A DNA stretch of 64,000 bases from Gemmatimonadota bacterium (lineage in GTDB: Bacteria > Gemmatimonadota > Gemmatimonadetes > Gemmatimonadales > GWC2-71-9), in the NCBI GenBank assembly GCA_036679605.1, contig JAZDCZ010000327.1, positions 29,094-93,093 on the forward strand, given 5' to 3'. The position numbers and the translations under genes are program-made. The notes beneath the pieces are model-generated. The model was not told the origin of the DNA. It saw only the letters and a list, made by a program, of their open reading frames with translations, and did not search any database. Of the stretch, positions 33,933 through 56,203 are shown piece by piece (the stretch's first letter is position 1; each line of letters starts with the position of its first letter).

Positions 33933-34965
33933 AGAGGTTCACGAACTTCACGTCGATCGGTTCGCGGGAGCACCATCGACCTGGAACGAATTCGTTCGCG
34001 CGCAAGATGGATGGACACATTTTCATCTGTTCGAGTGGAAGAACGTCATCCAGGAGGTGTTCGGACACGAATGCATTTACCTAACTGCAGTCGACAGAGA
34101 CGATGCACTCTCCGGCGTGTTGCCGCTCGTGCGGGTCAAAAGCAGGATCTTCGGGCACTACCTGGTTTCGATGCCATTCTTGAACTACGGCGGACCATTG
34201 GGAACTGCAGGCGCGATACGGAAACTCGTGGATCATGCCGTGCATCTTGCCCGCGAGAGCGACGCCGACCTCCTCGAGTTGCGCAGCAGAACTCGATTGG
34301 ATCTTGATCTACCGGTATCGCACCGAAAAGTTGATGTCATTCTCGAGCTACCCGACAATCCCGCCGCGCTCTGGTCGCAGTTCAAGACAAAGAGACGCAC
34401 AAGGATACGCCGCGCAGAGAAGGAGGGAGTCGAGGTTCGGTTCGGATTGTCCGAGCTGGACACATTCTACACCGTGTTTAGACGACACATGCGTGATCTG
34501 GGAACGCCTGTACTGAGTCGCCACATCTTCGAATCCATCGGCGATCATTTCCCCGACGACGTTCGCTTTGTGACCGCCTACCTCAAAGGAGTGCCCATTG
34601 CCTCAGGATGCGGCTTCACTTGGGATAGAGAGTTCGAGATGACTTGGGGAGCATCATTGCAAGAATTCAACAAGTGGGCACCCAACATGCTCCTCTATTG
34701 GAAGACCATGGAGCAGGCCATCGGTGAAGGAGTAAGGGTATTCAACTTCGGCCGTTGCACGCCTGGTGGAGGAACCCACAAGTTCAAGCTCCAGTGGGGA
34801 TCTCGGGAAATACCGCTTTTTTGGTACCAGCATGCCGCCACTCTCACCGAGGGAACGCCGTCGCCGGATGACTCACGCTACTCGTGGGGTCCGCGGATAT
34901 GGAAACACCTTCCCCTACCGCTCGCCAACCTCATGGGACCCGCAATAGTTCGGAACATCCCTTAA
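33925..34965 (+). CDS. FemAB family XrtA/PEP-CTERM system-associated GNAT-like protein
   Basis: GVLPLV, LVSMPFLNYGG, LELR, MRDLGTP, PNMLLYW, FNFGR, FKLQWG. Confidence 0.9.
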   Translation: MTEEVHELHVDRFAGAPSTWNEFVRAQDGWTHFHLFEWKNVIQEVFGHECIYLTAVDRDDALSGVLPLVRVKSRIFGHYLVSMPFLNYGGPLGTAGAIRKLVDHAVHLARESDADLLELRSRTRLDLDLPVSHRKVDVILELPDNPAALWSQFKTKRRTRIRRAEKEGVEVRFGLSELDTFYTVFRRHMRDLGTPVLSRHIFESIGDHFPDDVRFVTAYLKGVPIASGCGFTWDREFEMTWGASLQEFNKWAPNMLLYWKTMEQAIGEGVRVFNFGRCTPGGGTHKFKLQWGSREIPLFWYQHAATLTEGTPSPDDSRYSWGPRIWKHLPLPLANLMGPAIVRNIP

Positions 34966-38530: not shown

Positions 38531-38548
38531 TGTTGCACACACGCAACA
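38531..38548. promoter_or_regulatory. Palindrome TGTTGC-N6-GCAACA in the divergent SDR/PKS promoter region
   Basis: TGTTGCACACACGCAACA. Confidence 0.55.
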
Positions 38549-38783
38549 CCCTGCTGCAGGGGTGGGTTGCGTCCATGGCCTGACCAGTCGAGAAAGCAGC
38601 AAGTCGGGCTATTCCCCGCAGTATACGTGCGTTTTACTCGCCACCTTCGACTTGGCAGCGGCACAATAATTGACTTACTCGTCACGACTGCGAGCGCCTC
38701 TTCGGTGACGTTCTGAAAATCTGACAAAAGAAAGTAATACGAACCGTGACGCACCCAGCACCCACGGCCAACTAGACCGCAAA

Positions 38784-41700
38784 ATGCCAGCGAACTCTGA
38801 CTTGAATTCACAGACTTGCATAGCGGTCGTCGGCAGAGCCGCACGATTTCCCGGCGCTCCCAGCGTCGATCAATTCTGGCGCAATATACGCGACGGCGTG
38901 GAATCCATTCGAGCCCTCTCTGACGACGAACTCCGAGAGGCGCAAGTTCGCGAAGCGTTACTGTCCGACCCAACCTACGTGAAACGGGGAGCCCCGCTGG
39001 ACAATATGGAGGGGTTCGATGCGCAGTATTTCGGATTCAACCCCAAAGATGCGGCGATCATGGACCCGCAGCATCGTCACTTCCTTGAGTGCTCCGTCGA
39101 GGCATTGGAGAACGCGGGCTACGCGCCGGAGTTTTTCCCTGGGAGCATTGGCGTGTTCGCCGGCTCAGGCATGCATGCTTACATGATGTTCAATCTGGTA
39201 ACCAACCCGGATCTCGTAGAAGATGTGGGCCTGTTTCTCCTCCGACACACGGGGAACGACAAGGACTTCCTGTGCACACGGGCGTCTTACGAACTCAACC
39301 TGACGGGCCCGAGCGTGAACGTGCAGACGGCGTGCTCGACCTCGCTCGTGGCAATTCACGTTGCGTCTCAAAATCTCCTGAATGGAGAGTGCGACATCGC
39401 CCTTGCTGGGGGGGTGACCATCGAGATTCCCCACAGGCGCGGATACCTGTACCAAGAGGGAGAGATTCTCTCGCCCGATGGGCATTGTCGGGCATTTGAT
39501 GCTAGTTCGAAGGGAACGGTCTTCGGAAGTGGAGTGGGTGTCGTTGTCTTGCGCCGCTTGGAAGATGCCATCAACGACGGAGACCAGATCTATGCCGTTA
39601 TTCGCGGGTCCGCTGTCAATAATGATGGTTCAACCAAAGTCGGATATCTCGCCCCCTCGGTGGACGGCCAGGCCGCCGCCTTAGCCGAGGCTCTGGCAGT
39701 GGCTGGTGTTGATCCCAATTCTATTACCTACATCGAGACTCACGGGACGGGGACACCTGTAGGTGACCCTATCGAGATTGCGGCGCTGCAGCAGGGATTC
39801 GGAGACTGCGAGAGGAAACAGTTCTGCGCGATAGGATCCGTCAAAACAAACATCGGCCACACCGACACAGCCGCCGGAGTTGCTGGGTTCATAAAGACAG
39901 TTGAGGCCCTCCGTCACAAGAAGATTCCACCCAGCCTGCACTTCAGAGAGCCCAACTCAGCCATCGACTTTGCTCAGTCTCCGTTCTACGTGAACGCGGC
40001 TCTCTCCGATTGGTCGAGCCGTGACACTCCGCGTCGGGCTTGCGTGAACTCGATCGGCGTCGGTGGAACCAATGCCCATGTGGTGTTGGAGGAAGCACCT
40101 TCGCTCGATCCATCCGAACCGTCACACTCCTGGCAGCTACTGACACTCTCAGCGAAGACATCGGACGCGCTGGAAGCAGCCACGACAAATCTTTCTGATC
40201 ACCTCAGGGAATACCCGGACCTCAATCTTGCCGACGCGGCATACACGCTCCAACTAGGACGAAGCACACACAGGTACCGCCGCTCCGTTGTGGCAGACAA
40301 TCCTTCGCGCGCGGCGGATGCGTTGGAAAATCCAAACTCTGACCGCGTGAACACCAATGAAGCGCCAGATGCAAAGCGGTCCATTGCGTTCATGTTCGCG
40401 GGCGGCGGCGCACAGTATCCCACCATGGGCTTGGGTCTGTACGACCACGAACCAACCTACCGCCAAGAGATCGACCGTTGCCTCGAGTTCTTGGATTCAC
40501 AAATCGACTTCGACCTCAGAAGCTTGCTCTACCCAGATTCGAACCAAATGGACCAGGCGGCAGCGGAACTGGAACGCCCGTCCCGGGCGCTCCCCGCCTT
40601 GTTCATAACGCAGTACGCCCAAGCCAGGCTGTGGATGTCTTGGGGAATCGAGCCCGAAGTCATGATCGGCCATAGCATGGGCGAGTACACCGCGGCCTGT
40701 TTGGCAGGGGTCTTTTCACCCGAAGACGCGATGCGGCTGGTGCTCCTACGCGGTCGACTGTTTGAGCGTCTACCGAAGGGCACCATGCTCAGTGTCCCCT
40801 TGGGACAATCGGAACTCGAACAATTCCTGTCCGACGACCTGTCGATCGCAGCCGTCAACGCACCTGACCTCTGTGCAGCCTCAGGCCCAGTTGCATCGAT
40901 CGATAAACTCGAAGCACGTCTTGGCGAACGTGAGATCGATGCGCAACGCATACGCATCGCCGTCGCAGCTCATTCGTCGATGTTGGATGACATTCTGGAA
41001 GATTTCAGAGAGTACTGCCAGACCCTGGACTTGAGGTCGCCGCAAATCCCGGTTGCGTCGAACCTCTCGGGAGCGTGGTTAACCGCCCAGGAAGCATGTG
41101 ATCCCGAATACTGGACCAAACATTTGAGACACACTGTGCGCTTCGCTGATGGTATTGGCCTGCTGTTGCAACAATCCGAACGGACTCTGCTGGAGATTGG
41201 ACCCGGGCGAACGCTTGCCACTCTCAGTCGGATGCACTCGGATTTCGGCTCGAATCACATGACCATCACCTCGATGCGCCATCCCGACGAGCACGATTCC
41301 GACTGCGAGTTCATGCTCAAATCGCTGGGCGAGATGTGGCTCGCGGGCATTCAACCATCATGGGACAGTCTGCACCAGCACCAGAGGCGGCGCAGAGTTG
41401 CGCTACCGACATATCCCTTCGAGCATCGCCGCTATTGGATTGATGCCGAACCCAGTGCGATCGCATCAATCGAGCAGAGCGAGACCGCACTCGAGCGGAG
41501 GCCCGACCCGAGCGATTGGTTCTACCGCCCGGTGTGGAAACCGGAACCGCTCGCCGCAGATGACATCAAGCTCGCAGGCCGTCGGTTCCTCGTTTTCGCC
41601 GACGACCACGGATTCGCCGACCTGCTCACTACACGACTCCGCGACGGCGGAGCAAGAGTTCGAGTGGTCCAGCAGGCCACTGAGTTCGCCCAACTGGATG

Positions 41701-44600
41701 ACACAGCCTATACGGTGCATACAGGTGATTCTGGCGACTTCGAACGCCTGGTTCAAAGCGTGTGGGCCCAAGAGTTACCTCCGACAGATGTATTACACAT
41801 GTGGTCGCTCAGCGTTTCGCCCTCGGACGTGACACCGGACAACCTCGGGGATGTGGAGGAGCGCTCTTTTTACAGCTTGATGCTGCTGGCCCAGGCCCTC
41901 GGGACGCACGACGTGACCGCGCCACTTCGGTTAACGGTTCTCACCAATGGAGCGCAGCAAGTTGGAGCCGAGACAGTTCCCTACCCCACACAGGCATTGG
42001 TAGCCGGCCCGTGCCAGGTCATTCCGCGCGAGCTACCCAACATCGCCGCGAGCACGATAGATCTCGACGGGCTCGACGTGAAGGATGGTGCCTGGCTCGA
42101 GCCGATAGTCGCTGAACTCGGCACGGATCAACCGACTGCCCACATCGCTCTACGCGGGCGCGAGAGGCTTGTGAAAGACTGGGAGCACGTCCGGCTACAT
42201 ACTAAGGCGGTGCCGCGACTTCGAGAAGGAGGCGTCTACATCATCACTGGTGGGCTCGGTGGTATTGGCCTCACGGTCGCAGAGAGCATCGCTCGGAGGG
42301 TAAACGCAAAGCTCGTTCTCACGGCACGAACTCGGTTCCCCGACAGGAATGAGTGGGTGACATGGCTGGAAACACACCCCGATTCCGACCCAACTCGCGG
42401 CCGCGTGAGCAAGCTCCAGGAAATCGAGGCACTCGGCTCAGAGGTACTGCCAATCACAGCAGACGTGATGGACGAAGACGAAATGAATGCGCTGGTCGCG
42501 CAGGCCAAGAAACAGTTCGGAGCGATCCACGGGGTGGTACACGCAGCAGGCATACTCAACGACGGCCTGCTACAGTTGAAGGAACGGGGGGACGTCGATG
42601 GGGTTCTCGGGCCAAAGGTGAGGGGAACTCTGGTACTCGATCGCTGCCTGGCCGATGTCGACCTCGACTTCTTCATCTCCTGCTCGTCGATCAGTACGAT
42701 CACGGGCCCGGCCGGGCAAATTGACTACGTTGCCGCAAATGCTTTCCTAAACGCGTTTGCACATCACCAAGCTGCCAGGCACAGCACCTTTGCCTGTGCA
42801 ATCAATTGGCCTGCTTGGAGAGAGGTGGGGATGGCGGCGAAGCTGCTGAACGGTGCAGTTCCAAGTACGGACAGCCCCTCCAGCAACCACCCGCTCCTCG
42901 AGCGCTGTGTCGAGAACTCCGGTCCAATGACCGTTTACACCACTGATCTCGCCGCCGCAGAACATTGGGTTCTGAGCGAACACCGTCTCCGGGACGGGCC
43001 GCATTTGATGCCCGGTGCTGCATACTTGGAATTGGCACGCGCCGCCTTCGCGGCGGCCCCTGAAGAATGCGTCGAGTTCCGTGATGTTTTCTTTGTGTCG
43101 CCATTCGCGGTCGATCCGGACGGTAAACGGGAACTCATGGTCCAGATACATAGGAACGGAACAACTGCAGAGTTTGAGTTCGTGAGCGTCACCGAATCCG
43201 GCAAACAGCAACACGCGCGCGGCGAAATTGCCCAGGTCCCTCGGTCGACGCCAGAACGACTTGGACTGGACGAGGTCGCCGCCCGGTGTAACAGCCGGAG
43301 TGAGGAATTCAACGATACCGATCACCACCAACAAATCGCATTCGGCCCCCGGTGGGGATGCCTGAAGCGGATCGACTATGGTCTTGACGAAGCTCTCGTA
43401 TCCTTGGAACTCTCGGCAGAGTACATCGACGACCTCCAAGACTTCAAGCTACATCCCGCTATGCTTGACATGGCCACGGCCGGTGCCCAGTCGTTGATTC
43501 ACGACTTCGACCCGACACAAGATTTCTATGTTCCCGTAGGGTACGGCCGCCTGTTACTCTCCGGTGAACTCCCTCCCCGGCTAGTCAGTCACATCCGGTA
43601 TCGACCGAACCCTCCTGGTCAACACGATAGGGATGTCGCCGTTTTCGACGTAACCGTCATGGACGAGTCCGGTCTCGAGTTGGTGTTGATCGAAGAGTTC
43701 ACGATGCAACGGGTTCCAGCCGATTCGGCCTCCTCACTGGTGGTAGCCGGCAAGAGTGTGCCGATCGGTTCGGAGTATTGGTCGTCGCAGGGCTCTGCCC
43801 AAACCAACCAGCTGCTTGCGCGGGCCTTGGAACTCGGCCTGGATCCGGACGAAGGAGCGGACGCTTTCGAACGAATCCTCAGCGGACAACAGCCTGGCGC
43901 ACAGGTGGTCGTTTCGCCATATCCGCTTGCTGCAATTATCGAAGACGCCGCTTCAATGGACGAGCACGATGCAGGAACGGGAGAACCACCGCTCGAGCAG
44001 CCGACGGAGCTTAAAGAGGTGGAGAAGCTACTAGTAGACCTCAACGCCATAACTGCGGCCGGCGTCCGGGCATTTCGAGATCGCAACGCGACACAACGAG
44101 TCGCCGCCTTTGTAGTATACGATTCGATGGAACAGACGACGGTGAGCGAGTTGCGCAGGCACATCCGAAAGAATGTGTCCCAGGAATTCGTACCACAACA
44201 GTTCGTCGAAATTGACGACCTCCCGTTAACACCGACCGGCGGGATCAACTATGCGGACCTGCCTAATCCATTTGCCGAGGACGACGATTATGTCGCGCCG
44301 CGAACCGAGACCGAAAAGCAAATCGCCACCATCTGGCGTGGCGTTCTGGGAATCGAGCGAGTCAGCGTGCACGACAATTTCTTTGACATCGGAGGACACT
44401 CACTGCTTGGGATCAGGGTCATTACGCGTGTCAATAAACAGCTCGGTATACGCCTCAATCAAGCCATCATGGTTCTTCAAACACTGGAGCAGATAGCGCG
44501 GGAATGTGATACCGCAGCTACCCGTGTAACCGACGGCGAAGAAACGAGCAAACCACAGAGCCTCCTGAGTTCGGTCAAGGCCGCCGTGATCGGACGATGA
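38784..44600 (+). CDS. Type I polyketide synthase: KS-AT-KR-DH-(A-subdomain-like)-carrier
   Basis: KS: MDPQHR, QTACSTS, HGTGT, KTNIGH. AT: GHSMG, AAHS. KR: GGLGGIG, HAAG, YVAAN. DH: SEHRL...MPG, HPAMLD. Carrier: FFDIGGHSLL. Confidence 0.95.
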   Translation: MPANSDLNSQTCIAVVGRAARFPGAPSVDQFWRNIRDGVESIRALSDDELREAQVREALLSDPTYVKRGAPLDNMEGFDAQYFGFNPKDAAIMDPQHRHFLECSVEALENAGYAPEFFPGSIGVFAGSGMHAYMMFNLVTNPDLVEDVGLFLLRHTGNDKDFLCTRASYELNLTGPSVNVQTACSTSLVAIHVASQNLLNGECDIALAGGVTIEIPHRRGYLYQEGEILSPDGHCRAFDASSKGTVFGSGVGVVVLRRLEDAINDGDQIYAVIRGSAVNNDGSTKVGYLAPSVDGQAAALAEALAVAGVDPNSITYIETHGTGTPVGDPIEIAALQQGFGDCERKQFCAIGSVKTNIGHTDTAAGVAGFIKTVEALRHKKIPPSLHFREPNSAIDFAQSPFYVNAALSDWSSRDTPRRACVNSIGVGGTNAHVVLEEAPSLDPSEPSHSWQLLTLSAKTSDALEAATTNLSDHLREYPDLNLADAAYTLQLGRSTHRYRRSVVADNPSRAADALENPNSDRVNTNEAPDAKRSIAFMFAGGGAQYPTMGLGLYDHEPTYRQEIDRCLEFLDSQIDFDLRSLLYPDSNQMDQAAAELERPSRALPALFITQYAQARLWMSWGIEPEVMIGHSMGEYTAACLAGVFSPEDAMRLVLLRGRLFERLPKGTMLSVPLGQSELEQFLSDDLSIAAVNAPDLCAASGPVASIDKLEARLGEREIDAQRIRIAVAAHSSMLDDILEDFREYCQTLDLRSPQIPVASNLSGAWLTAQEACDPEYWTKHLRHTVRFADGIGLLLQQSERTLLEIGPGRTLATLSRMHSDFGSNHMTITSMRHPDEHDSDCEFMLKSLGEMWLAGIQPSWDSLHQHQRRRRVALPTYPFEHRRYWIDAEPSAIASIEQSETALERRPDPSDWFYRPVWKPEPLAADDIKLAGRRFLVFADDHGFADLLTTRLRDGGARVRVVQQATEFAQLDDTAYTVHTGDSGDFERLVQSVWAQELPPTDVLHMWSLSVSPSDVTPDNLGDVEERSFYSLMLLAQALGTHDVTAPLRLTVLTNGAQQVGAETVPYPTQALVAGPCQVIPRELPNIAASTIDLDGLDVKDGAWLEPIVAELGTDQPTAHIALRGRERLVKDWEHVRLHTKAVPRLREGGVYIITGGLGGIGLTVAESIARRVNAKLVLTARTRFPDRNEWVTWLETHPDSDPTRGRVSKLQEIEALGSEVLPITADVMDEDEMNALVAQAKKQFGAIHGVVHAAGILNDGLLQLKERGDVDGVLGPKVRGTLVLDRCLADVDLDFFISCSSISTITGPAGQIDYVAANAFLNAFAHHQAARHSTFACAINWPAWREVGMAAKLLNGAVPSTDSPSSNHPLLERCVENSGPMTVYTTDLAAAEHWVLSEHRLRDGPHLMPGAAYLELARAAFAAAPEECVEFRDVFFVSPFAVDPDGKRELMVQIHRNGTTAEFEFVSVTESGKQQHARGEIAQVPRSTPERLGLDEVAARCNSRSEEFNDTDHHQQIAFGPRWGCLKRIDYGLDEALVSLELSAEYIDDLQDFKLHPAMLDMATAGAQSLIHDFDPTQDFYVPVGYGRLLLSGELPPRLVSHIRYRPNPPGQHDRDVAVFDVTVMDESGLELVLIEEFTMQRVPADSASSLVVAGKSVPIGSEYWSSQGSAQTNQLLARALELGLDPDEGADAFERILSGQQPGAQVVVSPYPLAAIIEDAASMDEHDAGTGEPPLEQPTELKEVEKLLVDLNAITAAGVRAFRDRNATQRVAAFVVYDSMEQTTVSELRRHIRKNVSQEFVPQQFVEIDDLPLTPTGGINYADLPNPFAEDDDYVAPRTETEKQIATIWRGVLGIERVSVHDNFFDIGGHSLLGIRVITRVNKQLGIRLNQAIMVLQTLEQIARECDTAATRVTDGEETSKPQSLLSSVKAAVIGR

Positions 44601-44601
44601 A

Positions 44602-45378
44602 ATGAACCCGCTCTATTTCGGGTCCGCCGACAGGCCCCTGTTCGGCGTCTATCACCGCCCAAAGGGCACGCCGCGAAATTCGGGCGTTGTCTTGTGCTAC
44701 CCGTTCGGGCAAGAATACATGCGTTCGCATCGCGCATTCCGGCAACTGGCGTTGTTGCTCTCCAAGCGCGGCTTCCATGTATTCCGCTTCGACTACTTCG
44801 GCACCGGCGACTCCGCGGGCCGAAGCGACGAAGGGGACGTGCGTCAGTGGTTGGAGGATATTAGCACCGTCATCGAGGAGCTAAAGGATACCGCTGCAAT
44901 CGAATCAGTCTCTTTGGTTGGGCTTCGGCTTGGCGCAACCCTGGCAGGCTATGCCACAGCCGAGCGAACTGATATTGATCAGCTCGTGCTCTGGGATCCA
45001 CTAGTGAGCGGAGAGTCCTATGTCCAGGAGATTATGCCCCCACATCTTCCCTCGTCGGGAAACGGTTCCTCCTCAGACGCAATCTGTGGAGTCATGGGAT
45101 TCCCGGTTACGGTAAAGCTTAGGGAGAGCATCGAGGTGCTTGATCTCCTGGCGCCCCCCACCGCAAAGGCGCAGAACATATTCGTGGTAAGCTCACATGA
45201 GAGTACGGAATTCACTGGTTTGGCTGAGCACCTTCAAGTCACACATTCTTCGGTCACGTACTTGTGCGTTCCCTCACCGGGCAATTGGAATGAGGTCGAC
45301 AATTTTGGCGGTGCACTTATCCCGCAAGCTATCATTCAAGCCATTGTTGCTCACCTGATGGAGCATTGCGATACATGA
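44602..45378 (+). CDS. Alpha/beta hydrolase fold protein, similar to exosortase A-associated hydrolase 2
   Basis: PFGQEY, RFDYFGTGDS, GLRLGA elbow (no Ser), LWDP. Confidence 0.8.
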   Translation: MNPLYFGSADRPLFGVYHRPKGTPRNSGVVLCYPFGQEYMRSHRAFRQLALLLSKRGFHVFRFDYFGTGDSAGRSDEGDVRQWLEDISTVIEELKDTAAIESVSLVGLRLGATLAGYATAERTDIDQLVLWDPLVSGESYVQEIMPPHLPSSGNGSSSDAICGVMGFPVTVKLRESIEVLDLLAPPTAKAQNIFVVSSHESTEFTGLAEHLQVTHSSVTYLCVPSPGNWNEVDNFGGALIPQAIIQAIVAHLMEHCDT

Positions 45379-46289
45379 CAGATCGTGCGATCCGCTTCGG
45401 GCCACAGAAATCCCTAGTTGGTATTCTCACTGAACCCTCCGGGACTCGAAACTACGAGCAGCGCCCGGCCCTTATTCTGCTGAACTCTGGAATTCTCCAC
45501 AGAGTGGGCGCCTGCCGGCTGCATGTAAACATGGCCCGCATGATCGCAGCTCAGGGCATCCCCTCCCTGCGCTTCGACTTTTCAGGCATAGGGGACAGCG
45601 GGTCACGCCGCGACGCCCTTGCATTCGAGGAAAGTGCGCCGCTAGAGATCTCAGACGCGATGGACTTTCTCGAGAAGAATCGCGGAATAAGCGAATTCAT
45701 ACTGTTCGGTTTATGCTCAGGGTCTGACATGGCATTCGACGCCGCCGCTCAAGATCAGAGAGTCAAGGGGCTGATGCATATCGACGCTTGGCCATACCGT
45801 ACATGGAAATACTACTGGCACCGTTATCGCGGTAGAATCGCCAAACCGTCCGCGTGGACAAGCTTCGTGGCTCGGCGTCTAAGGTCAGTGTATTCGATGC
45901 GGGGTGACGGCGCAGATGAGGAGATTCCCGAGGACCTCGACTTGCCAACTTATGTCCGGGAACTTCCACCTAAGAAACAAGTTGCCAGAACGCTCGAGAG
46001 CCTGATCAGTCGCGGCGTTCAGATGCTGTACATATTCTCGGGCGGACAGTGCGACTACAACTACCGCAATCAGCTCAGAGACGCGTTCCCTCGCGTTAGG
46101 TTCGGCAACACTCTGACCTTGGAGCACGTTCCTGACGCCGACCATATCTTTACGGGTCTCGACCACCAGAGGTGGGTCTTGAACAATGTGAGTCAGTGGG
46201 TCGGTGAACGATGGCCGCTGCTAACCGATGAGGAGAGCGCACTCGATGGGAACCTCTCACAACAGCCACTGCAGGAGGTCCGTAGGTAA
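45375..46289 (+). CDS. Alpha/beta hydrolase fold protein, similar to exosortase A-associated hydrolase 1
   Basis: NSGILHRVG, RFDFSGIGDS, GLCSG elbow (Cys), ADHIF. Confidence 0.8.
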   Translation: MTDRAIRFGPQKSLVGILTEPSGTRNYEQRPALILLNSGILHRVGACRLHVNMARMIAAQGIPSLRFDFSGIGDSGSRRDALAFEESAPLEISDAMDFLEKNRGISEFILFGLCSGSDMAFDAAAQDQRVKGLMHIDAWPYRTWKYYWHRYRGRIAKPSAWTSFVARRLRSVYSMRGDGADEEIPEDLDLPTYVRELPPKKQVARTLESLISRGVQMLYIFSGGQCDYNYRNQLRDAFPRVRFGNTLTLEHVPDADHIFTGLDHQRWVLNNVSQWVGERWPLLTDEESALDGNLSQQPLQEVRR

Positions 46290-46291
46290 GC

Positions 46292-47242
46292 ATGTCTAAC
46301 ACTTCAGTGGCTCGGCTCAGTGATAGCAACGGTGGACCCGTGTCCATCGGTAAGCCTATTGCGAACACGACGTTCTATGTGCTCGACGACAACCTCGACC
46401 CGGTTCCCGTGGGGGTTCCAGGTGAACTTTTCATTGGTGGCAACGGAGTCACCCGAGGGTACCTACACAGACCGGAACTAACACTCGAACGCTTCGTTCC
46501 CAATCCTTTCAGTCCGGATACCAGATTATACCGCACCGGTGACATGGTTAGATACCGGCCAGACGGGAACCTGATTTTCCTTGGGCGGCGCGACGACCAA
46601 CTAAAAGTACGAGGTCACCGCATCGAGTTGGGAGAAATCGAATTTCATGCAGCTCAATTCCCTGGAGTACATGAGGCGGTAGCTGTAGCCCGTACCGATG
46701 ACTCCGATGACACACAGATAGTGGTGTATGTGCGACGCGATGATGGCGCTACCATATCGACCACCGATCTCAAGCAGGCCCTCGGCAATCAACTACCGGA
46801 TTTCATGGTACCATCACATGTTGTGGTGCTCGACCACTTCCCACTTACTCCCAACAAGAAAATCGACCGTAACGCTCTACCTGCTCCCGACCACGTGGCA
46901 CAAGCAGCAGATAACACCTACGTAGCCCCCACAAATGACATAGAGCAGACCATCGCCGAAATCTGGAAGTCAGCTCTAAAGTTGCCACAAGTGGGTATGC
47001 AGGACAATTTTTTTGAGTTGGGCGGTCATTCACTACTGGTCGTCAACGTACACAGTCGCTTGCGTAAGGATCTTGGCAGCGACCTAACTATCACAGATCT
47101 CTTCAGGTTTCCGACGATACGGCTGCTTGCAGCACATCTGAAACATGATGGGGCGAGTGACAGCGCCGACGATGCTATTCAAGACCGGGCGCGAAAAAGG
47201 CAGGATGCGCTAAGCAGGCGTAGACAGCGGCGAAAAGGGTAG
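46292..47242 (+). CDS. C-terminal part of an NRPS: adenylation motifs A6-A10 plus peptidyl carrier protein (inverted fragment)
   Basis: SIGKPIANT, GELFIGGNGVTRGY, YRTGD, GRRDDQLKVRGHRIELGEIE, TPNKKIDR, FFELGGHSLL; lacks A1-A5. Confidence 0.9.
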   Translation: MSNTSVARLSDSNGGPVSIGKPIANTTFYVLDDNLDPVPVGVPGELFIGGNGVTRGYLHRPELTLERFVPNPFSPDTRLYRTGDMVRYRPDGNLIFLGRRDDQLKVRGHRIELGEIEFHAAQFPGVHEAVAVARTDDSDDTQIVVYVRRDDGATISTTDLKQALGNQLPDFMVPSHVVVLDHFPLTPNKKIDRNALPAPDHVAQAADNTYVAPTNDIEQTIAEIWKSALKLPQVGMQDNFFELGGHSLLVVNVHSRLRKDLGSDLTITDLFRFPTIRLLAAHLKHDGASDSADDAIQDRARKRQDALSRRRQRRKG

Positions 47243-50200
47243 AGTGGACGACCAAATTGTGGTCTCGGTCGGACCATACATATTCATCACCTCACCAGAA
47301 ACAACGTCGCTGAGATCGGCCGCCAACCAACCCGGAAGTGCCTCACCGCCCACCAGCAACGCCCGTAAATCTCTGAGAGCATCTCGCGTCGTGGTATCGG
47401 CCATCATTATCTTGGCCATGGATGGCGTACACTGCATATGAGTAACGGAGTGTTTTCTTATTAGTGCGGCAATCGAGTGGTCTTCTCTGCTGATGTGCTG
47501 CGGGGCTGACAGCGCTCGAAGCCTGTCAAGGTGATCGAGGTGCTCCAGCACCAGCTCTAACGGCACGCCAAAATCGATGAGACAGGCAACTTCATCAACT
47601 CCAATTGCTTTCAGCTTCTCGATGGTAGAGCCACAGCCCTCTGGAGTTCCGAAGAGTCCGCTGGTCTCATAGTACCGGCCGAAGGCATGTTCGACCAACG
47701 CGTCAAGATCCTCATCTGACAAAGCCTCGAACGCACGATCGACGCTCTGTTCCTCGCTACGCTCCAGTTTTTCAAACGTTGGGAACGAGGATGCATATTT
47801 CTTGATGAGGCTCGCAGAACTCTTGAGGTAGCTCTTGAGAGGTCCACGTACCTCAGCGCGAACGAAATCGGCATCATCGGCAACGAAGGTGTGAAGCATC
47901 AGGGCAACATGACCTTCGCCAGAGTGGCCCGCATCCTTCCATGCCGTACGATAGATCTTCAGTTTCACGGATACTTCCTCCATACCCTGACCGAGTAAGT
48001 GGGTCAGGATACCCGCACCCAACTCGCCAGCCAGCCTGAATGTCTCCGGGTTCCCGGCAGTCGTGATCCAGATGGGTAACTCTGGCTGAATCGGGCGTGG
48101 CAGCGTACGTACTTCAACCACTCCCTTTGGACCTGGTAGCATCACGCTCTCGCCCCTCCAAAGCCTGCGAACGATATCGATGTATTCAACCATGGTCCGC
48201 TTGGCCTCAGCATAGTTCTCCGGCTTCAGCACGAAGTCATCCGGTTGCCATCCAGACGCAAACGCAATCCCCACTCGGCCATTCGACAGGTTGTCTACAA
48301 CGCTCCACTCCTCGGCGACACGAATCGGATTGTGTAGCGGCAACACACAACTCCCGGCTCTGATCTGAACCCGATTGGTCAGGGCAGCGATCGCGGCGCT
48401 CGCCACGGATGGGTTGGGGTAGAGACCACCGAAAGCATGGAAGTGACGCTCAGGAGTCCAAACCGCGACAAAGTCGTGTTCATCCGCAAATCTTGCTCCC
48501 TCTTTCAGTAGGCGGTACTTGTCGGCGCCGTCGGCACCCTCGTCGCTGGCAAAATAGAAAAGGCTGAAGTCTATCGGCTGGTCGGAGCGGTTGCCGGCCC
48601 GTTCATTTCCCTTCACATCCCACTCCTCGTCGGGATCTATCACGATGGTGAACCCGCGTGCCAACGTCCAAAACAATTCCAAAACGGATATGTCAAACGA
48701 AAGACTCGTTACCGCCAACCAAACTCCGGGAGGATCGTGCGGAACACGTTCGTCCATGCCGGCAAAAAAGTTGATCACATTCCGGTGCTCGACCATCACA
48801 CCCTTGGGCTTCCCGGTCGATCCCGACGTGTATATGACGTAGGCCAGATTGGAGGGAGTGACGTCCTTACCAGGCTCATCCTGATCGGAGCTCGACATCT
48901 CCTTCCACTCCGCATCCATACAGACAACCGTTGCACCGTGATCCGGAAGTTCGCCAGCAATTGCCGTTTGCGTAATCACAACTGGAGCCTTCGAGTCTTC
49001 CAACATGAACGCGATTCTCGCTCGCGGGTAGGATGGATCTATGGGAACATACGCACCGCCCGCCTTGTGAACCGCCAACAGGCTCGCCACCATATCGATT
49101 GACCGGGTTACGCATACGCCGACCAACACCTCAGGGGCGACACCCAAAGAGCGGAGATGACCGGCTAGGGCATTGGCTCGATCATTCAATTCTTGGTAGG
49201 TGACTTTCTCGTTCTTGAATATGAGTGCTGTAGTCTCGGGAGACTGCGCGACACGTTGCTCAAATGCATGATGAACGCAAACCTCTTCCGGACAAGACAT
49301 GGCTGTGTCATTCCAGTCTACCAGGACTTGCTGTCGCTGTCGGTCGGAGAGGAGAGAAACGCCTTCGACGGGCCGTGAAACGTCCGCTACAATCGCATCC
49401 AACAGTGCGGCAAACTGCTCCTGCATGATACCGACAGTCGGCTCATCAAGCGCACCGCAATCGTATTCCCAACGGCAACCAGAGCCGTCTGATGCCACCA
49501 CCCAGCGGAGTTGCAGACCGGCACACGGAGAATTGACACTGGGGTCAGCACCGATGTGCACCGAGACCGACAGCGCATGTGTTTCCCCACTCGATGCCCC
49601 CAGTTCTGGAAACCGAGCTACGACATCGCGCGCATACGTCATCCGGTTCCTGATCTTGGAGACAGCCTCAGCAACTCTGACTGCCGCAGCATCGAATCCC
49701 TCCGTCGGATCAAACTCAATGCGCAACGGCACTTCGGACGAAAATACCCACTCCGCTCCCGCAACGGCCTGTCGCAAGGCCGCATCTGAGAACCCAACAT
49801 CCAGTACAGACACACCTCCCAAGCGTGCCAGATAGACTCCAAGGGACGCCAGCAAGAGCTCTGCAGCGTTAAGGTCGGCCAATCCACTGTTGAGAAACGA
49901 CTGTACTGTACTCGAGATTTCCTGATTCGCAGCTAGCCACTCGCTATGGTCCGACGAGCGCGTTGCGTACGGTATGTGTGCCGGTTCCAACTTCGACAAA
50001 CGCCTAACCCAGTAAGGCTCATGCTGACTTGCGAGAGCGCTGACAGCCTCGACCCGTTTGAGAATCCGCGGTTCGGGATCCTGCAAACGGAACCCTTGTT
50101 TGATCCCAAATCTCTTCGACAACTCAGAGATCGACAGCTTCCTACCTTCAATCGTCGACACTTCCAGTATCTCGATCTCGCCCGAGCTCGATGCGACTCG

Positions 50201-51007
50201 TAGCTTGTCGGAATCGAATTGGGTCACCGTTCCTGGGGCCGCGGAAGAATCCCCATCGATAATGCCAACCGACCGCAGGAGTATTGCCTCACCTCCGATC
50301 AAGACTTTCGGCAAACCAAGCGGGTTTCTGTACCCTCCAAAGTCAAGCGCCCGAACAAGGGCAGATATCTGCTCTGCAGGAGAGGACCACTTGATGGTGC
50401 ACGCTGCGGGAGGGCGATCGTCACGAGCGAAGACATTCAATTCGTCAGAATTTTGGCGGAGTGGCTTCAGGCTCTCCCGTTCCAGATCTTCGACCAGCGA
50501 ACCGAAAGAACTGAGTCCCGCCTCATAACACTTGGTGTTCAGCGTGAAGGAAGTCTCATCACCGGCAATGGAAAAACATTCCTGCCTCAGAATGTCCCCG
50601 GCGTCTACGTTCTCGGTCATCACGTGCCACGTAATGCCATACTCGCGCTCACCACGCATGATGGCCCAAGCGGGCGTATTGAGCCCGGCGTACTTCGGTA
50701 GAGGTCCATCGTGGAAATTAATGGCACCCCGTCGCGGCAGTTCCAAGACTTCGCCGGGCAGAATTGCGAGGCTGGTGATGTTCAGCAGGTAGTCGAACGA
50801 GTTGCGTTCTGCCACGTCGGGGATGTCCCGAGGTCTCGTGACGAGTGGTATTCCCTTCTCCCGAGCCCACTTCCCGATATTTTCGCTCGCCGAGAGGACC
50901 CCCACAACTCTATGACCACGATCCATCAGAATATCGGCACACCCGATCATCAGGGATTCCGCGCCGGCGAGGAAGAAGCTCAGCTGCCTACCCTGTGATT
51001 CCGCCAA
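47210..51007 (-). CDS. N-terminal part of an NRPS: formyltransferase - partial condensation-like domain - adenylation A1-A5 interrupted by a MupA/Atu3671-type luciferase-like monooxygenase
   Basis: INFHDGPLPKYAG, VDAGDI; TYQELN, YTSGSTGKPKG, SFDISV; FSLFYFA, WTPERHFHAFGG, PIRVAEEWS, EVACLIDFG; GGEAL, NMYGPTETTIWSST followed by antisense read-through. GGAG precedes TTG 51007. Confidence 0.92.
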   Translation of the reverse strand: MAESQGRQLSFFLAGAESLMIGCADILMDRGHRVVGVLSASENIGKWAREKGIPLVTRPRDIPDVAERNSFDYLLNITSLAILPGEVLELPRRGAINFHDGPLPKYAGLNTPAWAIMRGEREYGITWHVMTENVDAGDILRQECFSIAGDETSFTLNTKCYEAGLSSFGSLVEDLERESLKPLRQNSDELNVFARDDRPPAACTIKWSSPAEQISALVRALDFGGYRNPLGLPKVLIGGEAILLRSVGIIDGDSSAAPGTVTQFDSDKLRVASSSGEIEILEVSTIEGRKLSISELSKRFGIKQGFRLQDPEPRILKRVEAVSALASQHEPYWVRRLSKLEPAHIPYATRSSDHSEWLAANQEISSTVQSFLNSGLADLNAAELLLASLGVYLARLGGVSVLDVGFSDAALRQAVAGAEWVFSSEVPLRIEFDPTEGFDAAAVRVAEAVSKIRNRMTYARDVVARFPELGASSGETHALSVSVHIGADPSVNSPCAGLQLRWVVASDGSGCRWEYDCGALDEPTVGIMQEQFAALLDAIVADVSRPVEGVSLLSDRQRQQVLVDWNDTAMSCPEEVCVHHAFEQRVAQSPETTALIFKNEKVTYQELNDRANALAGHLRSLGVAPEVLVGVCVTRSIDMVASLLAVHKAGGAYVPIDPSYPRARIAFMLEDSKAPVVITQTAIAGELPDHGATVVCMDAEWKEMSSSDQDEPGKDVTPSNLAYVIYTSGSTGKPKGVMVEHRNVINFFAGMDERVPHDPPGVWLAVTSLSFDISVLELFWTLARGFTIVIDPDEEWDVKGNERAGNRSDQPIDFSLFYFASDEGADGADKYRLLKEGARFADEHDFVAVWTPERHFHAFGGLYPNPSVASAAIAALTNRVQIRAGSCVLPLHNPIRVAEEWSVVDNLSNGRVGIAFASGWQPDDFVLKPENYAEAKRTMVEYIDIVRRLWRGESVMLPGPKGVVEVRTLPRPIQPELPIWITTAGNPETFRLAGELGAGILTHLLGQGMEEVSVKLKIYRTAWKDAGHSGEGHVALMLHTFVADDADFVRAEVRGPLKSYLKSSASLIKKYASSFPTFEKLERSEEQSVDRAFEALSDEDLDALVEHAFGRYYETSGLFGTPEGCGSTIEKLKAIGVDEVACLIDFGVPLELVLEHLDHLDRLRALSAPQHISREDHSIAALIRKHSVTHMQCTPSMAKIMMADTTTRDALRDLRALLVGGEALPGWLAADLSDVVSGEVMNMYGPTETTIWSSTLPFSPLSTPA

Positions 51008-51068
51008 TTCAGAGACTCCGTTCTGGGTTTGTTGCTCCGTGGTCTTGTTAAAGCAAGGTTGGCGCCAA

Positions 51069-51764
51069 CTAGCCCGCCGGCCACTTGAGCACGGCACCGG
51101 TCACAAGATAGCGACCTGCGAGAGCGAACCCCCCATCGATTAAGGACAGCTCCGGGAAATCATGCACTCGAGCGCACCTGACGGTAAAGCGTTGTTTCAG
51201 AGGATCCAGTTCTAGCTCGATGTCCTTGAAATCGAACATTTCTCGCAGAATCGGATAAACGCACTTGTATACGGCCTCCTTGGCGCTGAACAGGACCGCG
51301 GGCCAACCCACGGGGAAGCTCGTCCCAGCGCCCAACGCCCAGCGTGCCTCACGATCAGTAAGCACGGCCTCCACTGCATCTTCTGGAAGTGCCTCAGCTG
51401 GCTCTGTATCTAGTCCTATTCCGCGGAGCGACTCAGCGTGTGCAACTACTGCGGCGGCCATGCTGTCACTGTGAGTGACGCTCCCAACCACCCCGTCAGG
51501 CCAGCGAGGCGCACGATCGCGGCCAGCTGGAATGGGAATACCGGATACACCCAACATCTCCAGCGCCCGATGTGCACACTCCCGGCCTTTGGCGAATTCG
51601 AGGCGGCGCGATGGAACTGCAGATCGAACGCACTCTTCCTCCTCCGGAAACAATGGAGCGGGCTCTCGCTCATTGTCGAACACCGCGACGTGCACCCCTT
51701 CCGGGAACAACTGTCGGAGCACCTGTGCGAGGTCCGTGTCTGAGTTACCTCTCAGGGGTGCCAT
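51069..51764 (-). CDS. 4'-phosphopantetheinyl transferase (EntD/Npt type)
   Basis: RRLEFAKGRECAH, WPDGVVGSVTH, GIGLDTE, FSAKEAVYK. Confidence 0.92.
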   Translation of the reverse strand: MAPLRGNSDTDLAQVLRQLFPEGVHVAVFDNEREPAPLFPEEEECVRSAVPSRRLEFAKGRECAHRALEMLGVSGIPIPAGRDRAPRWPDGVVGSVTHSDSMAAAVVAHAESLRGIGLDTEPAEALPEDAVEAVLTDREARWALGAGTSFPVGWPAVLFSAKEAVYKCVYPILREMFDFKDIELELDPLKQRFTVRCARVHDFPELSLIDGGFALAGRYLVTGAVLKWPAG

Positions 51765-51774
51765 TGTCCCAGCG

Positions 51775-53064
51775 CTATTTGAATTCGAGTCGCAGCAGAA
51801 GATCGTCGTGGGGACCGGGCCTTCCTCGTCCGTCACGATTACTTGTGGTAACATAGACGCTGCCGTCGGGACCAACTTTGATTGCGCGGAGCCTACCGAA
51901 ACGGTTAACCAGCATTTGTTCCTCACACCCGGCACGCCAACCCGTAGCCGAGTTTTCGTCCGGCTCAATAACTATCCGCTTAAGTTGGCGCCCTCGCAGG
52001 CCGGTTACCAGCAGATTTCCAAACCACGGTGTCCCCTCTACCGAATAGACCGCGAGTCCGGCTGGCGCGATCGCTGGGGTCCACTGTGCAATTGGCCAAC
52101 TGAAGTCCGACCCCGATCCAGTGCCGGATGCGTACGGCCAGCCATAATGTTTGCCTGGAACGACGACATTCAGTTCGTCTCGGCCGAAGCGACCTCCCTC
52201 ATTGGGAAGGCCCGTTGGACCATGATCCGTGGCGAACAGTTGCCCCGTCGGATGCCACGCCAGCCCTTGCACATTTCGAAACCCAAGCGCGTACACCGGT
52301 GACGCTTCGAACGGGTTGTCTGTTGGGATTGAACCGTCAGACCGATACCTCAATATCTTGCCCGCAAGCGAGTTGATTCCTTGCGGCTCAGCATCCACGT
52401 ATGCCTCGCCTACTGAGACATAGAGCATGCTGTCGGGACCGAACTCGAGCGCAGCACCAGCATGGAGATGACTTGCCGGCAGGTTGTCGATCACTAGCTC
52501 GGGAGACGATACTTGACCATCGTTATCAACGAAACGGTAGACTCGATCTTCGAACAAGGATTCCGCCGATTTCGACAATACACCCAGCACGCGGCGCATT
52601 CCCCTGTCGAACAAGCGGCCGACTCCTGAGGTGGGACCGCGAAAGAAAGTCCCTACCACATAAATTTCGCGGCTCTTGTCGTAGTCGGGCGCCAAGGCGA
52701 TGCCCATAAGTCCGGCCTCTATACCACTGCTGTTGTCAGCAAATACGTCGAGGCTCGCCCAGGGAGTGGGCTCAACTCTTCCGTTCTCGACAACCCTGAT
52801 CGTCCCCTCACGCTCTGTCACCAGGATCCGGTCTTTGCTAGTGAAAACTAGATCCCAAGGGACATCGAGACCTGTCGCCAATGTGTCGATCGATACCCTT
52901 GAGGAATCCGCACAGAGTGCGAGCGTCGGCAATTGCTCCAACCGATCCTCGACAGCGTCTGACATCCTTTCGGTCTGACGGCAACCCAAGGTCGCGCCGA
53001 CGGCACATAGCGCAATAGCCACACGACTCAAGGAGTTTGGGAAATCAGACACGGTAACCCTCAT
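51775..53064 (-). CDS. PQQ-dependent sugar dehydrogenase (glucose/sorbosone dehydrogenase family), lipoprotein
   Basis: TLGC lipobox, GLDVPWDL, TEREG, FGPDSMLYVSVGE, GKILR, GFRNVQG, YGWP, GRLR. Confidence 0.88.
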   Translation of the reverse strand: MRVTVSDFPNSLSRVAIALCAVGATLGCRQTERMSDAVEDRLEQLPTLALCADSSRVSIDTLATGLDVPWDLVFTSKDRILVTEREGTIRVVENGRVEPTPWASLDVFADNSSGIEAGLMGIALAPDYDKSREIYVVGTFFRGPTSGVGRLFDRGMRRVLGVLSKSAESLFEDRVYRFVDNDGQVSSPELVIDNLPASHLHAGAALEFGPDSMLYVSVGEAYVDAEPQGINSLAGKILRYRSDGSIPTDNPFEASPVYALGFRNVQGLAWHPTGQLFATDHGPTGLPNEGGRFGRDELNVVVPGKHYGWPYASGTGSGSDFSWPIAQWTPAIAPAGLAVYSVEGTPWFGNLLVTGLRGRQLKRIVIEPDENSATGWRAGCEEQMLVNRFGRLRAIKVGPDGSVYVTTSNRDGRGRPGPHDDLLLRLEFK

Positions 53065-53157
53065 AATACGGCAATATCCTTTGCCGAGCCCTGGATTGCA
53101 ATCAAGAAGCTTGTTTTACTTGGGAAGTGTTCGGATTCGTGCTTTGGGACCAGAGAC

Positions 53158-54174
53158 CTATGCGCGTCTACGTGCGACCAAGGCCCTTCGAGCGCGAGCC
53201 CGAACGCTTCCAGTTCGGCTCGCATCGTTGCCGCCGGCTATGTGCTGGGCAAGCGCTCTGACCGTCGGGAACTGAAACACATCTGTGACTGCGAGTTCAA
53301 AACCGATTGAGGCACGGATGCGGTCTCGCATTCTGAGCGCTAGAAGTGAATTCCCGCCCAAACTGAAGAAGCTGTCCTCTGCTCCTACTGTGGGCATTTC
53401 CAACAGCTCCTCCCAGATCTCTGCCACTGCACGTTCTACCTCAATTGGCCGCTGAGGCAGACGATGCCTCTCAGATCTCCCACCTACTCCCCGCAATCCA
53501 GGGGCAACGGTTTGCGTCATCGGTGGTCGATTCAATATCTCACCCGGCGCAGTCATGACCGTGGCGCCCGCCGGCACGTTCTGCATCACAACCGACCCTG
53601 CCCCAACCGTGGCCCAGGCCCCGATCTCAAGATCGGGCAACACGCTTGCGTTGGTGCCCACGTAGACACCTTCACCAAGTTGCACTCGGGCGTTGACCAC
53701 CGCGTTGGGCGCAAGGACACAGCATGCACCTATGCAGCTGCCGTGACCCACGATTGCGCCGATGAACACTACCGAACCCTCACCAACAGATGAGTTCGCG
53801 CCGAGTGTGGCGTTCTGATACACTGTAAGATCGTTGGGAAGTTTGACACCATGCGTGTCGACAGTTGGTGAACACAGTCCTGCAAACGGAACGCCGTAGC
53901 GGTCGATCACGTCACGGGCAGCCGCCCTTTTTTCCGTCGTTCGGGCCACGAGGTTCACAACCTCGTCCCGATTCGCGTCCGCGTCCTGCAACATGTCGAA
54001 TGGCCCTGCGATGGTGACATCCAGAACCTGATCTCCGTGTTTCGCGGAGTCATCGTCTAGCAGAACGATACGATCCCACTGCTGTCGCTCGCGGTTGACC
54101 GTGAGCGCCAGCCTCACGCCTTCGGGGTTGCCCGCTCCACAGAGATAGAGGGTGTGTTTCGAGGCGGACGGCAT
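53158..54174 (-). CDS. NeuD/PglD-like hexapeptide acetyltransferase fused to a C-terminal phosphopantetheine carrier domain
   Basis: GAG N-domain, GAIVGHG, VGAGSVV hexapeptide repeats; IWEELL...FFSLGGNSLL...FQFPTV. Confidence 0.85.
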   Translation of the reverse strand: MPSASKHTLYLCGAGNPEGVRLALTVNRERQQWDRIVLLDDDSAKHGDQVLDVTIAGPFDMLQDADANRDEVVNLVARTTEKRAAARDVIDRYGVPFAGLCSPTVDTHGVKLPNDLTVYQNATLGANSSVGEGSVVFIGAIVGHGSCIGACCVLAPNAVVNARVQLGEGVYVGTNASVLPDLEIGAWATVGAGSVVMQNVPAGATVMTAPGEILNRPPMTQTVAPGLRGVGGRSERHRLPQRPIEVERAVAEIWEELLEMPTVGAEDSFFSLGGNSLLALRMRDRIRASIGFELAVTDVFQFPTVRALAQHIAGGNDASRTGSVRARARRALVARRRA

Positions 54175-54177
54175 GTA

Positions 54178-55131
54178 CTAGCCCACCGGATCCAAAGTTG
54201 CAGACGAAGGACGGAAGGTTCCGACCGCCGGGCGGATTCTAGAAGCTGCACCTGTCATCCAGTCCTTACAGTCCTGGCATCTATCGGGCAATTCGTCGAA
54301 CCGATGCTCCAGGTGCTTCTCACGGTAAGCACCGAGTTCTCCCCATAGACTGGCGAGCGAAGCGTTCCACGCGTTGCCGGCCTCCTCTTCTCCCTCCGTA
54401 TCACCGGGACACCGTGGTACCCGCCCGTCCCAAAACACGTGCATCATGGTGAGCGCCCAGGGACACGGTATACGGTCTTCCTTGGCGATTTCGAGCGGAG
54501 TGCCGAACTTGCCACCCCAACTTAGTTTGTTACGCACTTTGAGGGTGGCGCCCCGCTCCAACCAGTAGGCCTTGAACTCCTCGACCTCGTGTTCGTTCTC
54601 GTCCATCTCGATGAATTGGACTTGGATTTCAGGACCGTTGCCGCGAAGCTCGCGGAGTTGCAGGAAGTGTTCGGCGTTCGCGTATACGCGATCTCGGACC
54701 GCGCCAATCCGAATCGCTTCGAACGCCTCCGCCGAGAACCCATCTATGCCGAACACCACGAGATCGACGCCTGTGTCCATCAGAGGCCCCGCGAGATCGG
54801 GGGTCAGCAACATTCCGTTGGTATTGACGTTGAGCGAAAGCAGACCTACCGACTTGCCGTATCTCAGCATGCGGAACAGTAGGTCAGGTTCCAGCAGGGG
54901 CTCACCGCAGAACGAGAACCAGCACTCGGTACGTGGCGCGGTGGCCGCGATCTCGTCGGCACACTTTTTCCATAGTTCGAACGGCATCGTGCCCTTCGGT
55001 CGCCGCATCATGGGATGATGGCACATGCTGCACGCGAGATTACAGTCTGCACAAACCTCAACCGCAAATTTCTTGGGGAACGGTAGCTCGCCCAGTGTCT
55101 TGGCGATCGTGGCGAGTTCTGGCTGGATCAT
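54178..55131 (-). CDS. Radical SAM protein with SPASM/twitch domain
   Basis: CNLACSMC, GEPLL, TNG; C-terminal CPW...DGRV..CPGD...GN...CQDC. Confidence 0.92.
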   Translation of the reverse strand: MIQPELATIAKTLGELPFPKKFAVEVCADCNLACSMCHHPMMRRPKGTMPFELWKKCADEIAATAPRTECWFSFCGEPLLEPDLLFRMLRYGKSVGLLSLNVNTNGMLLTPDLAGPLMDTGVDLVVFGIDGFSAEAFEAIRIGAVRDRVYANAEHFLQLRELRGNGPEIQVQFIEMDENEHEVEEFKAYWLERGATLKVRNKLSWGGKFGTPLEIAKEDRIPCPWALTMMHVFWDGRVPRCPGDTEGEEEAGNAWNASLASLWGELGAYREKHLEHRFDELPDRCQDCKDWMTGAASRIRPAVGTFRPSSATLDPVG

Positions 55132-55197
55132 GCACAGCTCCTGTTCACATAGCGGTGGCGGGATGAGAACGCTCTTAGAGAATCACCCCGCACAGCA

Positions 55198-55211
55198 GCA
55201 AGACCGAAGCC
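55198..55211 (-). promoter_or_regulatory. Putative sigma54 promoter for the radical SAM operon
   Basis: GGCTTCGGTCTTGC on the minus strand, ~70 nt upstream of the start. Confidence 0.45.
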
Positions 55212-55457
55212 TCAGCGCGTTTTTTTAATGAAGAAGGAATGAATTATTTGTGAAACTCTTGAGGTGAGCCTCTGGCCGGATGCGAGCCGATCCCACGCGT
55301 GGAGTTCATCGCAGGTGTCGGACTCGCCCTGCGTTGGGCACCAACACAAAAAAGGCCCGACATCAAAACGCCGAGCCCACGCTTACCCCGATCCTCGGGT
55401 TAGCCTTTCACCTTTCACATCTTACGTTCCCGTTTCTCGCTTCCCGCTTCCCGCCCC

Positions 55458-56153: not shown

Positions 56154-56203
56154 ATAATCCCGCTTCAAGAAGCTCATCCGTTTGTCTCCTGTCACAACTC
56201 GTT

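Follow-up and report, generated by a model that had tools for sequence, protein, structure and literature searches.

One NRPS gene of a Gemmatimonadota bacterium is cut inside the core of its adenylation (A) domain, and its two halves (the N half and the C half) lie on opposite strands. As far as the sequence can tell, this arrangement is probably, though by no means securely, an old rearrangement that selection has preserved, the halves functioning in trans. That a working A domain was cut in its core by an old inversion, and is now encoded by convergent genes in two operons with a tolerated split point right after A5, is held with a shade less confidence. The window, i.e., the whole stretch of 64,000 nucleotides that was analysed and to whose first letter all positions refer, corresponds to 29094-93093 of contig C254 and thus reaches the end of this 93-kb contig. 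The assembly comprises 6.7 Mb in 434 contigs without N (completeness 96.5%, contamination 6.3%).

The N half (1265 aa; 47210..51007, minus strand) shows in profile searches the domain order Formyl_trans_N/C, a weak condensation match, A1-A4, an LLM insert, and A5. The insert is of the MupA/Atu3671 type (TIGR04020, aa 814-1164; 503.8 bits compared to a cut-off of 244.45), the AMP-binding match covers model positions 1-241, and after A5 the protein closes with 10 unrelated residues, which the antisense of the C half encodes. The C half (316 aa; 46292..47242, plus strand) begins with four foreign residues followed by the strand that succeeds A5, and the profile search finds AMP-binding positions 341-384, AMP-binding_C, and PP-binding. 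It carries A6-A10 with the A10 lysine, a PCP with the GGHSL serine, and a homologue-like basic tail, and aligns to PheA from about residue 339 on, i.e., over barrel, hinge, small sub-domain, and carrier. All of the motifs A1-A10 are present, shared out over two open reading frames, and the cut is situated after A5 inside the core, not at the A8/A9 boundary between core and sub-domain or at the A8 hinge. The initial annotation had stated that the minus-strand NRPS ceases to match its family just after A5, which profile matches and homologue alignment bear out, and that the continuation A6-A10-PCP lies on the plus strand beside it, which was found at 46292-47242.

The split is accepted on grounds of homology, because the homologues run on past A5; the restoration of a long frame by inversion was rejected as evidence, since 772 of the 2565 breakpoint pairs tried in silico also yield more than 1500 aa. 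All 119 other matches to the N half extend at least 124 aa past A5, and both NRPS parts are found on one strand, in order and unbroken, in each of the 32 related loci that show both (15 + 17, many of them kin). No relative shares the split; the closest relatives have only 53-68% identity, and no metagenome or genome loci closer than about 53% were found. Matches include proteins named Gemmatimonadales and Longimicrobiales, and the mean identity of each half to 85 homologues is about one SD below the homologues' mutual mean. A recurrent natural start after A5 was considered and rejected, as 106 of 120 C-half matches keep A5; among the 13 without it besides the query, 11 are located on contigs of at most 2.1 kb and 2 are named partial. 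Six homologous clusters (L039, L060, L065, L067, L068, L070), mostly on long contigs, exhibit several frame changes, which are probably sequencing indels.

According to profile matches, the locus is a PKS/NRPS cluster within an XrtA/PEP-CTERM polysaccharide region; the NRPS exists as a single copy in the genome, and the other cluster genes are intact. On the plus strand, a type I PKS (38784..44600; KS-AT-KR-DH, a degenerate AMP-binding_C, and a carrier; lagging-type codon bias) is followed by two alpha/beta hydrolases resembling, below cut-off, XrtA-associated hydrolase 2 (44602..45378) and hydrolase 1 (45375..46289). On the minus strand, a run of genes at 51775..55131 for a GSDH-type dehydrogenase, a NeuD-like acetyltransferase fused to a carrier domain, and a radical SAM/SPASM protein leads into the N half, with the 4'-phosphopantetheinyl transferase (PPTase) gene situated upstream of the latter (51069..51776). 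The polysaccharide deacetylase and FemAB-family genes of the XrtA system (33192..34965, plus strand; both over cut-off) appear to form an exopolysaccharide/PEP-CTERM context, and a PEP-CTERM protein is encoded at 55458-56225. The degenerate AMP-binding_C piece of the PKS comprises aa 1745-1819, ahead of its carrier domain. Elsewhere in the window, a small helix-turn-helix ORF at 59981-60702 is followed by apparently only the C-terminal part of what is presumably a HipA-type kinase; a large repeat protein with choice-of-anchor Z repeats and very strong codon skew (60843-63998, minus strand) is truncated by the contig end; and short tandem DNA repeats, open in several frames, are situated at 30546-31427 upstream of a 247-aa ORF.

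Concerning gene order, the NRPS leads directly into the PKS on one strand in 21 of the 24 loci that hold both genes, with 26-89 nt between the NRPS stop and the first KS motif (17 distinct loci measured). This order is not found in L020, in L030 (where the PKS and the hydrolases precede the NRPS), or in L062 (convergent, with an intact NRPS); in L027, L035, and L038, the NRPS is located after the dehydrogenase. In L062 (genome G774, 2479-13675), the NRPS of the convergent pair is one frame with about 1.1 kb inserted in the region of the small sub-domain. In the window, the PKS-hydrolase block, too, is reversed in comparison to most relatives, a rearrangement that the initial annotation had missed, and the boundary of this block is the NRPS stop. 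Both the C half and the PKS-hydrolase block of the window are flipped in place relative to the common order, and the two flips meet at the NRPS stop; there is no glycosyltransferase between NRPS and PKS. A spacer of 313 bp (38470-38783) separates the divergent SDR and PKS genes and is a candidate site of a third breakpoint; comparison of 38466-38790 to the fetched loci and the genome found no remnant of an earlier gene. The PKS ATG lacks a Shine-Dalgarno (SD)-like motif, and in the relatives the PKS ATG is coupled to the NRPS stop.

At the left junction (46300..46311), CACT (46300-46303) is followed by TC (46304-46305) and AGTGG (46306-46310). At the right junction (47240..47248), the TAG stop of the C half directly adjoins the end of the N half, as had been noted before, followed by AGTG (47243-47246) and GA (47247-47248). 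The 4-bp inverted match CACT/AGTG described at the two ends is likewise present, and a repeat search (seed 9, length 12) found no inverted repeat linking the junctions. The inversion of 46304-47242 that had been proposed does restore in silico a frame, of 1567 aa, but the resulting join is probably two codons too long, and the plus-strand continuation is not exact as had been claimed. The spacer between the W-S of A5 and the following [IVL]G.P, readable in 116 of 120 proteins, comprises 13 residues in 101, 14 in 9, and 16 in 2 of them; the proposed join has 16, and both proteins with 16 have their extra residues later in the loop. In a MAFFT alignment, the C half begins its likeness to the family with two residues that share columns with the last two of the N half, and among six joins scored, four with 13-14 residues reach 251.6-252.2 bits, against 241.0 for the proposed one. 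On account of these columns and scores, the halves appear to overlap by about two codons, and this overlap differs in sequence between them. The largest inverted match in the breakpoint grid is 6 bp long and gives a join that is not homologue-like, while the 2-bp core TC/GA gives one that is. The junctions look fresh, with 4-bp inverted and 5-bp direct matches and no sequence lost; their folds are not unusual (z 0.64 to -1.0), and the junction pattern had no match in a collection of genome contigs from which the own genome is possibly absent. The last 7 bases of the C half (47236-47242, plus strand) recur near the start of the N half (50988-50994, minus strand), which places an inverted match of 7 bp on either side of the N part; a flip there gives no sensible gene, and the match is perhaps due to chance.

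One public run holds this stretch and may be the source of the assembly. An unbranched Logan contig of this run (18,302 bases, depth 13.2) covers 39317-55500 without a differing letter, gap, or joint and crosses both junctions. This letter-for-letter layout excludes the error of a single assembler, one form of the chimera considered in the initial annotation, and leaves a chimera at the library level, which is unlikely. No second orientation occurs in the contigs of the Logan assembly, which drop rare variants. In a self-homology scan of the genome, in which 2375 bins of 1 kb were covered, 13 opposite-strand candidates emerged, among which only the NRPS locus (16 supporting queries) appears to be a close, high-scoring continuation; of the 12 other rows, ten were assessed by their table entries alone and are domain matches of 24-51% identity, 0.2-5.5 kb apart. 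The next best candidate, accounting for the remaining two, suggested a second strand-split gene on contig C383, which proved false, the genes there being tandem kinase paralogues. The genome is not full of such flips. Members of a large family of Ser/Thr kinase paralogues with frame-change-like breaks against each other are located on C383 (13264-13686) and C311 (923-953 and 6211-6240; 56, 25, and 20 queries), and another NRPS piece (L018, 593-1272 of the 3.3-kb contig C95) exhibits a frame change at about 766. Matches in the genome number 35 for tyrosine recombinases, 6 for resolvases, and 10 for IS110, none of them on the contig of the window, in agreement with the earlier statement that neither a recombinase nor a long inverted repeat is visible in the window. 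The genome further has one Ku, 53 frameshift-like places, and many mobile elements.

Concerning the age of the split, the genome exhibits a replication-strand bias at synonymous sites, and the minus strand of the contig is keto-rich and presumably constitutes the leading strand. The synonymous codons of the C half carry the bias of the strand that it now occupies (lagging-type), unlike those of the N half (leading-type). A paired test was chosen because a freshly flipped C half would share the history of the N half. The difference C minus N amounts to -0.0223 per codon, compared to +0.0016 +/- 0.0097 in the tails of 161 long leading-strand genes (P = 0.006 with these, 0.008 with 263 genes, and 0.005 by codon permutation; likelihood ratio (LR) of old to recent about 17), a signal limited by about 310 codons, several test forms tried, and a last third of the C half that is leading-like. 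A GC-neutral score gives +0.108 for the N half, -0.077 for the C half, -0.077 for the lagging mean, and -0.105 for the PKS (P = 0.006 with 161 and 0.004 with 263 genes), and when the codon series is reunited, the change-point that fits best (1279) lies 24 codons from the break (1255). At fourfold sites, the keto difference amounts to -0.090, whereas 13 intact homologues range from -0.037 to +0.064, all of them higher; in a second set of homologues, 12 of 13 measurable ones range from -0.063 to +0.087, and L062, which has its insertion there, shows -0.093. The unpaired test of the C half is weak (LR 0.28, leaning to the plus strand; LR 3.5 for old), and the minus-strand radical SAM gene scores the same.

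The N half fits a long residence on the minus strand (LR about 180) and the PKS, which is fully lagging-type, a long residence on the plus strand (LR below 0.01); a recent flip of the PKS block was rejected on this ground. The reversed orientation of this block, together with its full lagging-type bias, means that at least one flip at the NRPS-stop boundary is old. Another history, in which the ATG at 46292 is the old NRPS start and the 3.8-kb N part flipped recently (5-bp match 46297-46301/51046-51050, resulting in an L030-like order), was rejected because of the leading-type bias of the N half, the chance-level 5-bp matches, and a TTG start that fits the N-termini of homologues. Rewriting a strand bias would need substitutions at a large share of synonymous sites; the flip of the C half looks old.

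Under simulated neutral drift of 0.1 substitutions per site, the C frame stayed open in 9% of the runs and the N frame in none of 200; at 0.3 substitutions per site, the C frame was open in 0.25%. If the age signal is true, both halves would have been under selection after the split. The tree branch of the C half accounts for 2.5% of tree length and that of the N half for 2.3-2.5%, without excess in either. The C half retains the motifs A6, A7, and A8 as well as the lysine of A10 and the serine of the PCP, and departures from conserved columns, mostly around A8 and in the small sub-domain, number 8 of 93 in the C half versus 9 of 273 in the N half, with a reference set biased by having been chosen for its likeness to the N half. 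In A10, a lysine replacing the usual glycine is a frequent variant (46 of 223 motifs).

Each half has a putative usable start. The in-frame ATG 2 nt after the hydrolase stop, already recorded in the initial annotation, is present at 46292, and AGGAGGT (46273-46279) lies 12 nt upstream of it (46273..46294, plus strand); this start likely belonged to a gene that formerly followed the hydrolase and is now used by the C half. A bare ATG is no rarity after a convergent stop, being found within 14 nt in 127 of 608 cases, and gaps of at most 20 nt separate 31% of 366 convergent pairs. An ATG combined with GGAGG, however, follows only 6 of the 608 convergent stops compared to 74 of 1735 co-directional ones, which gives modest support for the C-half start. 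The break lies exactly at the stop codon, such that hydrolase and C half are both complete. The N half starts at TTG 51007, preceded at a distance of 8 nt by the ribosome-binding motif GGAG (51016..51019, minus strand), and the length of its N-terminus from there matches homologues. A scan for promoters and terminators found no excess over shuffles. A perfect 8-bp inverted pair (46264-46271/46305-46312) lies around the ATG of the C half and its SD-like motif and could tie translation of the C half to ribosomes finishing the hydrolase; the fold of this pair is no better than that of shuffles (z 0.64).

A fixed split A domain working in trans, one of four options in the initial annotation, is now the best supported of them owing to the strand-bias age signal and the intact frames. 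According to this option, an old rearrangement would have cut a formyltransferase-A-LLM-A-PCP gene at the start of the strand after A5 and reversed its 3' part. The simplest history would be one three-break event repaired by end-joining, because the PKS-hydrolase block is flipped as well and shares the NRPS-stop boundary; the Ku of the genome was counted in favour. The 3' part would have gained, in frame, a start that is coupled to the last hydrolase, and would be translated with the PKS operon, the 5' part would be translated from its own start within the PPTase operon, and the two chains would reassemble. The N half would supply the formyltransferase, the oxygenase, and the pocket with nine of the ten code residues, and the C half the beta-barrel, the A10 lysine, and the carrier docking on the PKS. 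The pocket residues are D-I-L-Q-L-G-M-I-W in the N half and K in the C half, which we take to be a glycine code. The pathway might then start with the activation and formylation of glycine, proceed via a flavin-dependent oxidation and a single PKS extension, and end with the transfer to a surface polymer; its product would be a small N-formyl-glycine-derived acyl unit for a surface polysaccharide. From the sequence we infer age, selection, end-joining, expression, reassembly, substrate, and product alike. A model of the homologue P0122 (pLDDT 85.6) shows a strand at the four residues that succeed W-S, each of which is retained in the C half; a single-sequence fold of the C half was unusable (pLDDT 37). 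Counted against the halves working in trans were the restriction to one genome and one run and the existence of a convergent PKS/NRPS pair with an intact NRPS (L062).

The inactivating rearrangement also envisaged in the initial annotation is still the main rival, with a real if minor likelihood. A recent one-off inversion would have killed the NRPS, the PKS block having turned long ago and decay having not yet begun, and staggered breaks or template switching might have left the 2- and 4-bp inverted duplications. The sharp junctions with their short inverted matches agree with this, as does the two-codon overlap, such as staggered-end fill-in would leave; the split is absent from all relatives checked, open frames are expected of a very young event, and the genome has Ku, many mobile elements, and frameshift-like places. 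Against it stand the three coincidences that it needs: that C and N half differ in strand bias (P about 0.006), that a strong SD-like motif accompanies an in-frame ATG, and that a breakpoint fell inside the 14-20-nt gap between two stops. It is unlikely that the halves are old and selected but of other origin or use, either as two formerly convergent copies trimmed to complementary parts, or with separate roles, in which the C half would chiefly be a free-standing carrier and the N half be used for its formyltransferase and oxygenase. Each half does have its own start and strand bias, the overlap differs in sequence, the NRPS directly follows the hydrolases in L030 and the dehydrogenase in L027, L035, and L038, and trees place N and C half beside different homologues. 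These placements are, however, unsupported (0.09-0.15 for N, 0.81 for C), an almost exactly complementary cut comes free with one inversion, and A6-A10 would not survive for a carrier-only role.

Less probable still is a library-level amplification chimera fixed in the reads of a single run. The one run known, possibly the source of the assembly, has no library type on record, which speaks for such a chimera, but both junctions lie in one contig of even depth (about 13) in a run with 14.4 million contigs, the strand-bias step would be left unexplained, and the NRPS locus stands out as the only close, high-scoring continuation among the 13 candidates of the 2375 bins. An invertible switch, finally, as had also been suggested, is the least probable explanation and very unlikely: a reversible intragenic inverton would toggle a surface modification via a distant recombinase. 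The exopolysaccharide context, the many recombinases encoded in the genome, and the homologue-like join at the 2-bp TC/GA core would fit, whereas inverted repeats, a second orientation in the contigs, and a recombinase match on the contig of the window are all lacking, and the 4-bp core gives a protein of the wrong length, with two residues in excess and a score some 11 bits lower than that of the best joins. With no inverted repeat longer than 4 bp and recombinase matches absent from the contig, the reversible switch is unsupported.

If the halves cooperate, the split point lies inside the A core, while the sole experimentally shown natural split found in print is at the A8/A9 hinge. Such a cut, by which the substrate pocket would be parted from the carrier, the barrel, and the catalytic lysine, would be of use in NRPS engineering, and the locus would constitute a clean case of gene fission by inversion; a fresh knock-out would be an ordinary lesion. 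Synonymous-codon strand bias can date a rearrangement in a genome without close relatives, and split genes of this kind should not be called pseudogenes by default. In main texts of the literature, neither a direct precedent for this split nor a paper combining gene fission, inversion, opposite strands, and bacteria was found.

Intragenic invertons, as described in the main text of Chanin et al. (10.1101/2023.03.11.532203), are defined by inverted repeats (11 bp in the thiC case), and reads show both orientations. The likeness is confined to a breakpoint within a gene that turns one ORF into two; in the NRPS locus, neither flanking inverted repeats nor a second orientation are seen, the latter judged from contigs only. 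The organization of the cluster is similar to the conserved four-gene NRPS/PKS/PPTase cluster of roseobacters, whose product is given as uncharacterised in the main text of PMC4337385. The NRPS resembles the MupA/Atu3671-family LLM NRPS (TIGR04020) of these clusters in domain order, with 43-68% identity, and has the same partner PKS and PPTase (PMC4337385); TIGR04020 is located inside a formyltransferase-A module beside a type I PKS and a PPTase, as is characteristic of MupA/Atu3671 LLM clusters. Unlike in those clusters, the single A-PCP frame is missing here, being split across strands, and the genes are set in an XrtA/PEP-CTERM locus. A further close system is the corallorazine NRPS Crz1/Crz2, with a split A2 domain that is active when its halves are mixed, called the first such report in the main text of PMC11342130. 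In both systems, one A domain extends over two ORFs, the second with the A10 region and a carrier (PMC11342130). Activity with both halves mixed, and only then, is shown there for Crz, and is presumed for the NRPS of the window. The Crz cut, according to the same text, follows A8 and a methyltransferase insert at the natural hinge of core and sub-domain, in adjacent genes (PMC11342130), whereas the NRPS of the window is cut in the core right after A5, with its halves on opposite strands and in two operons and an inversion as the probable cause.
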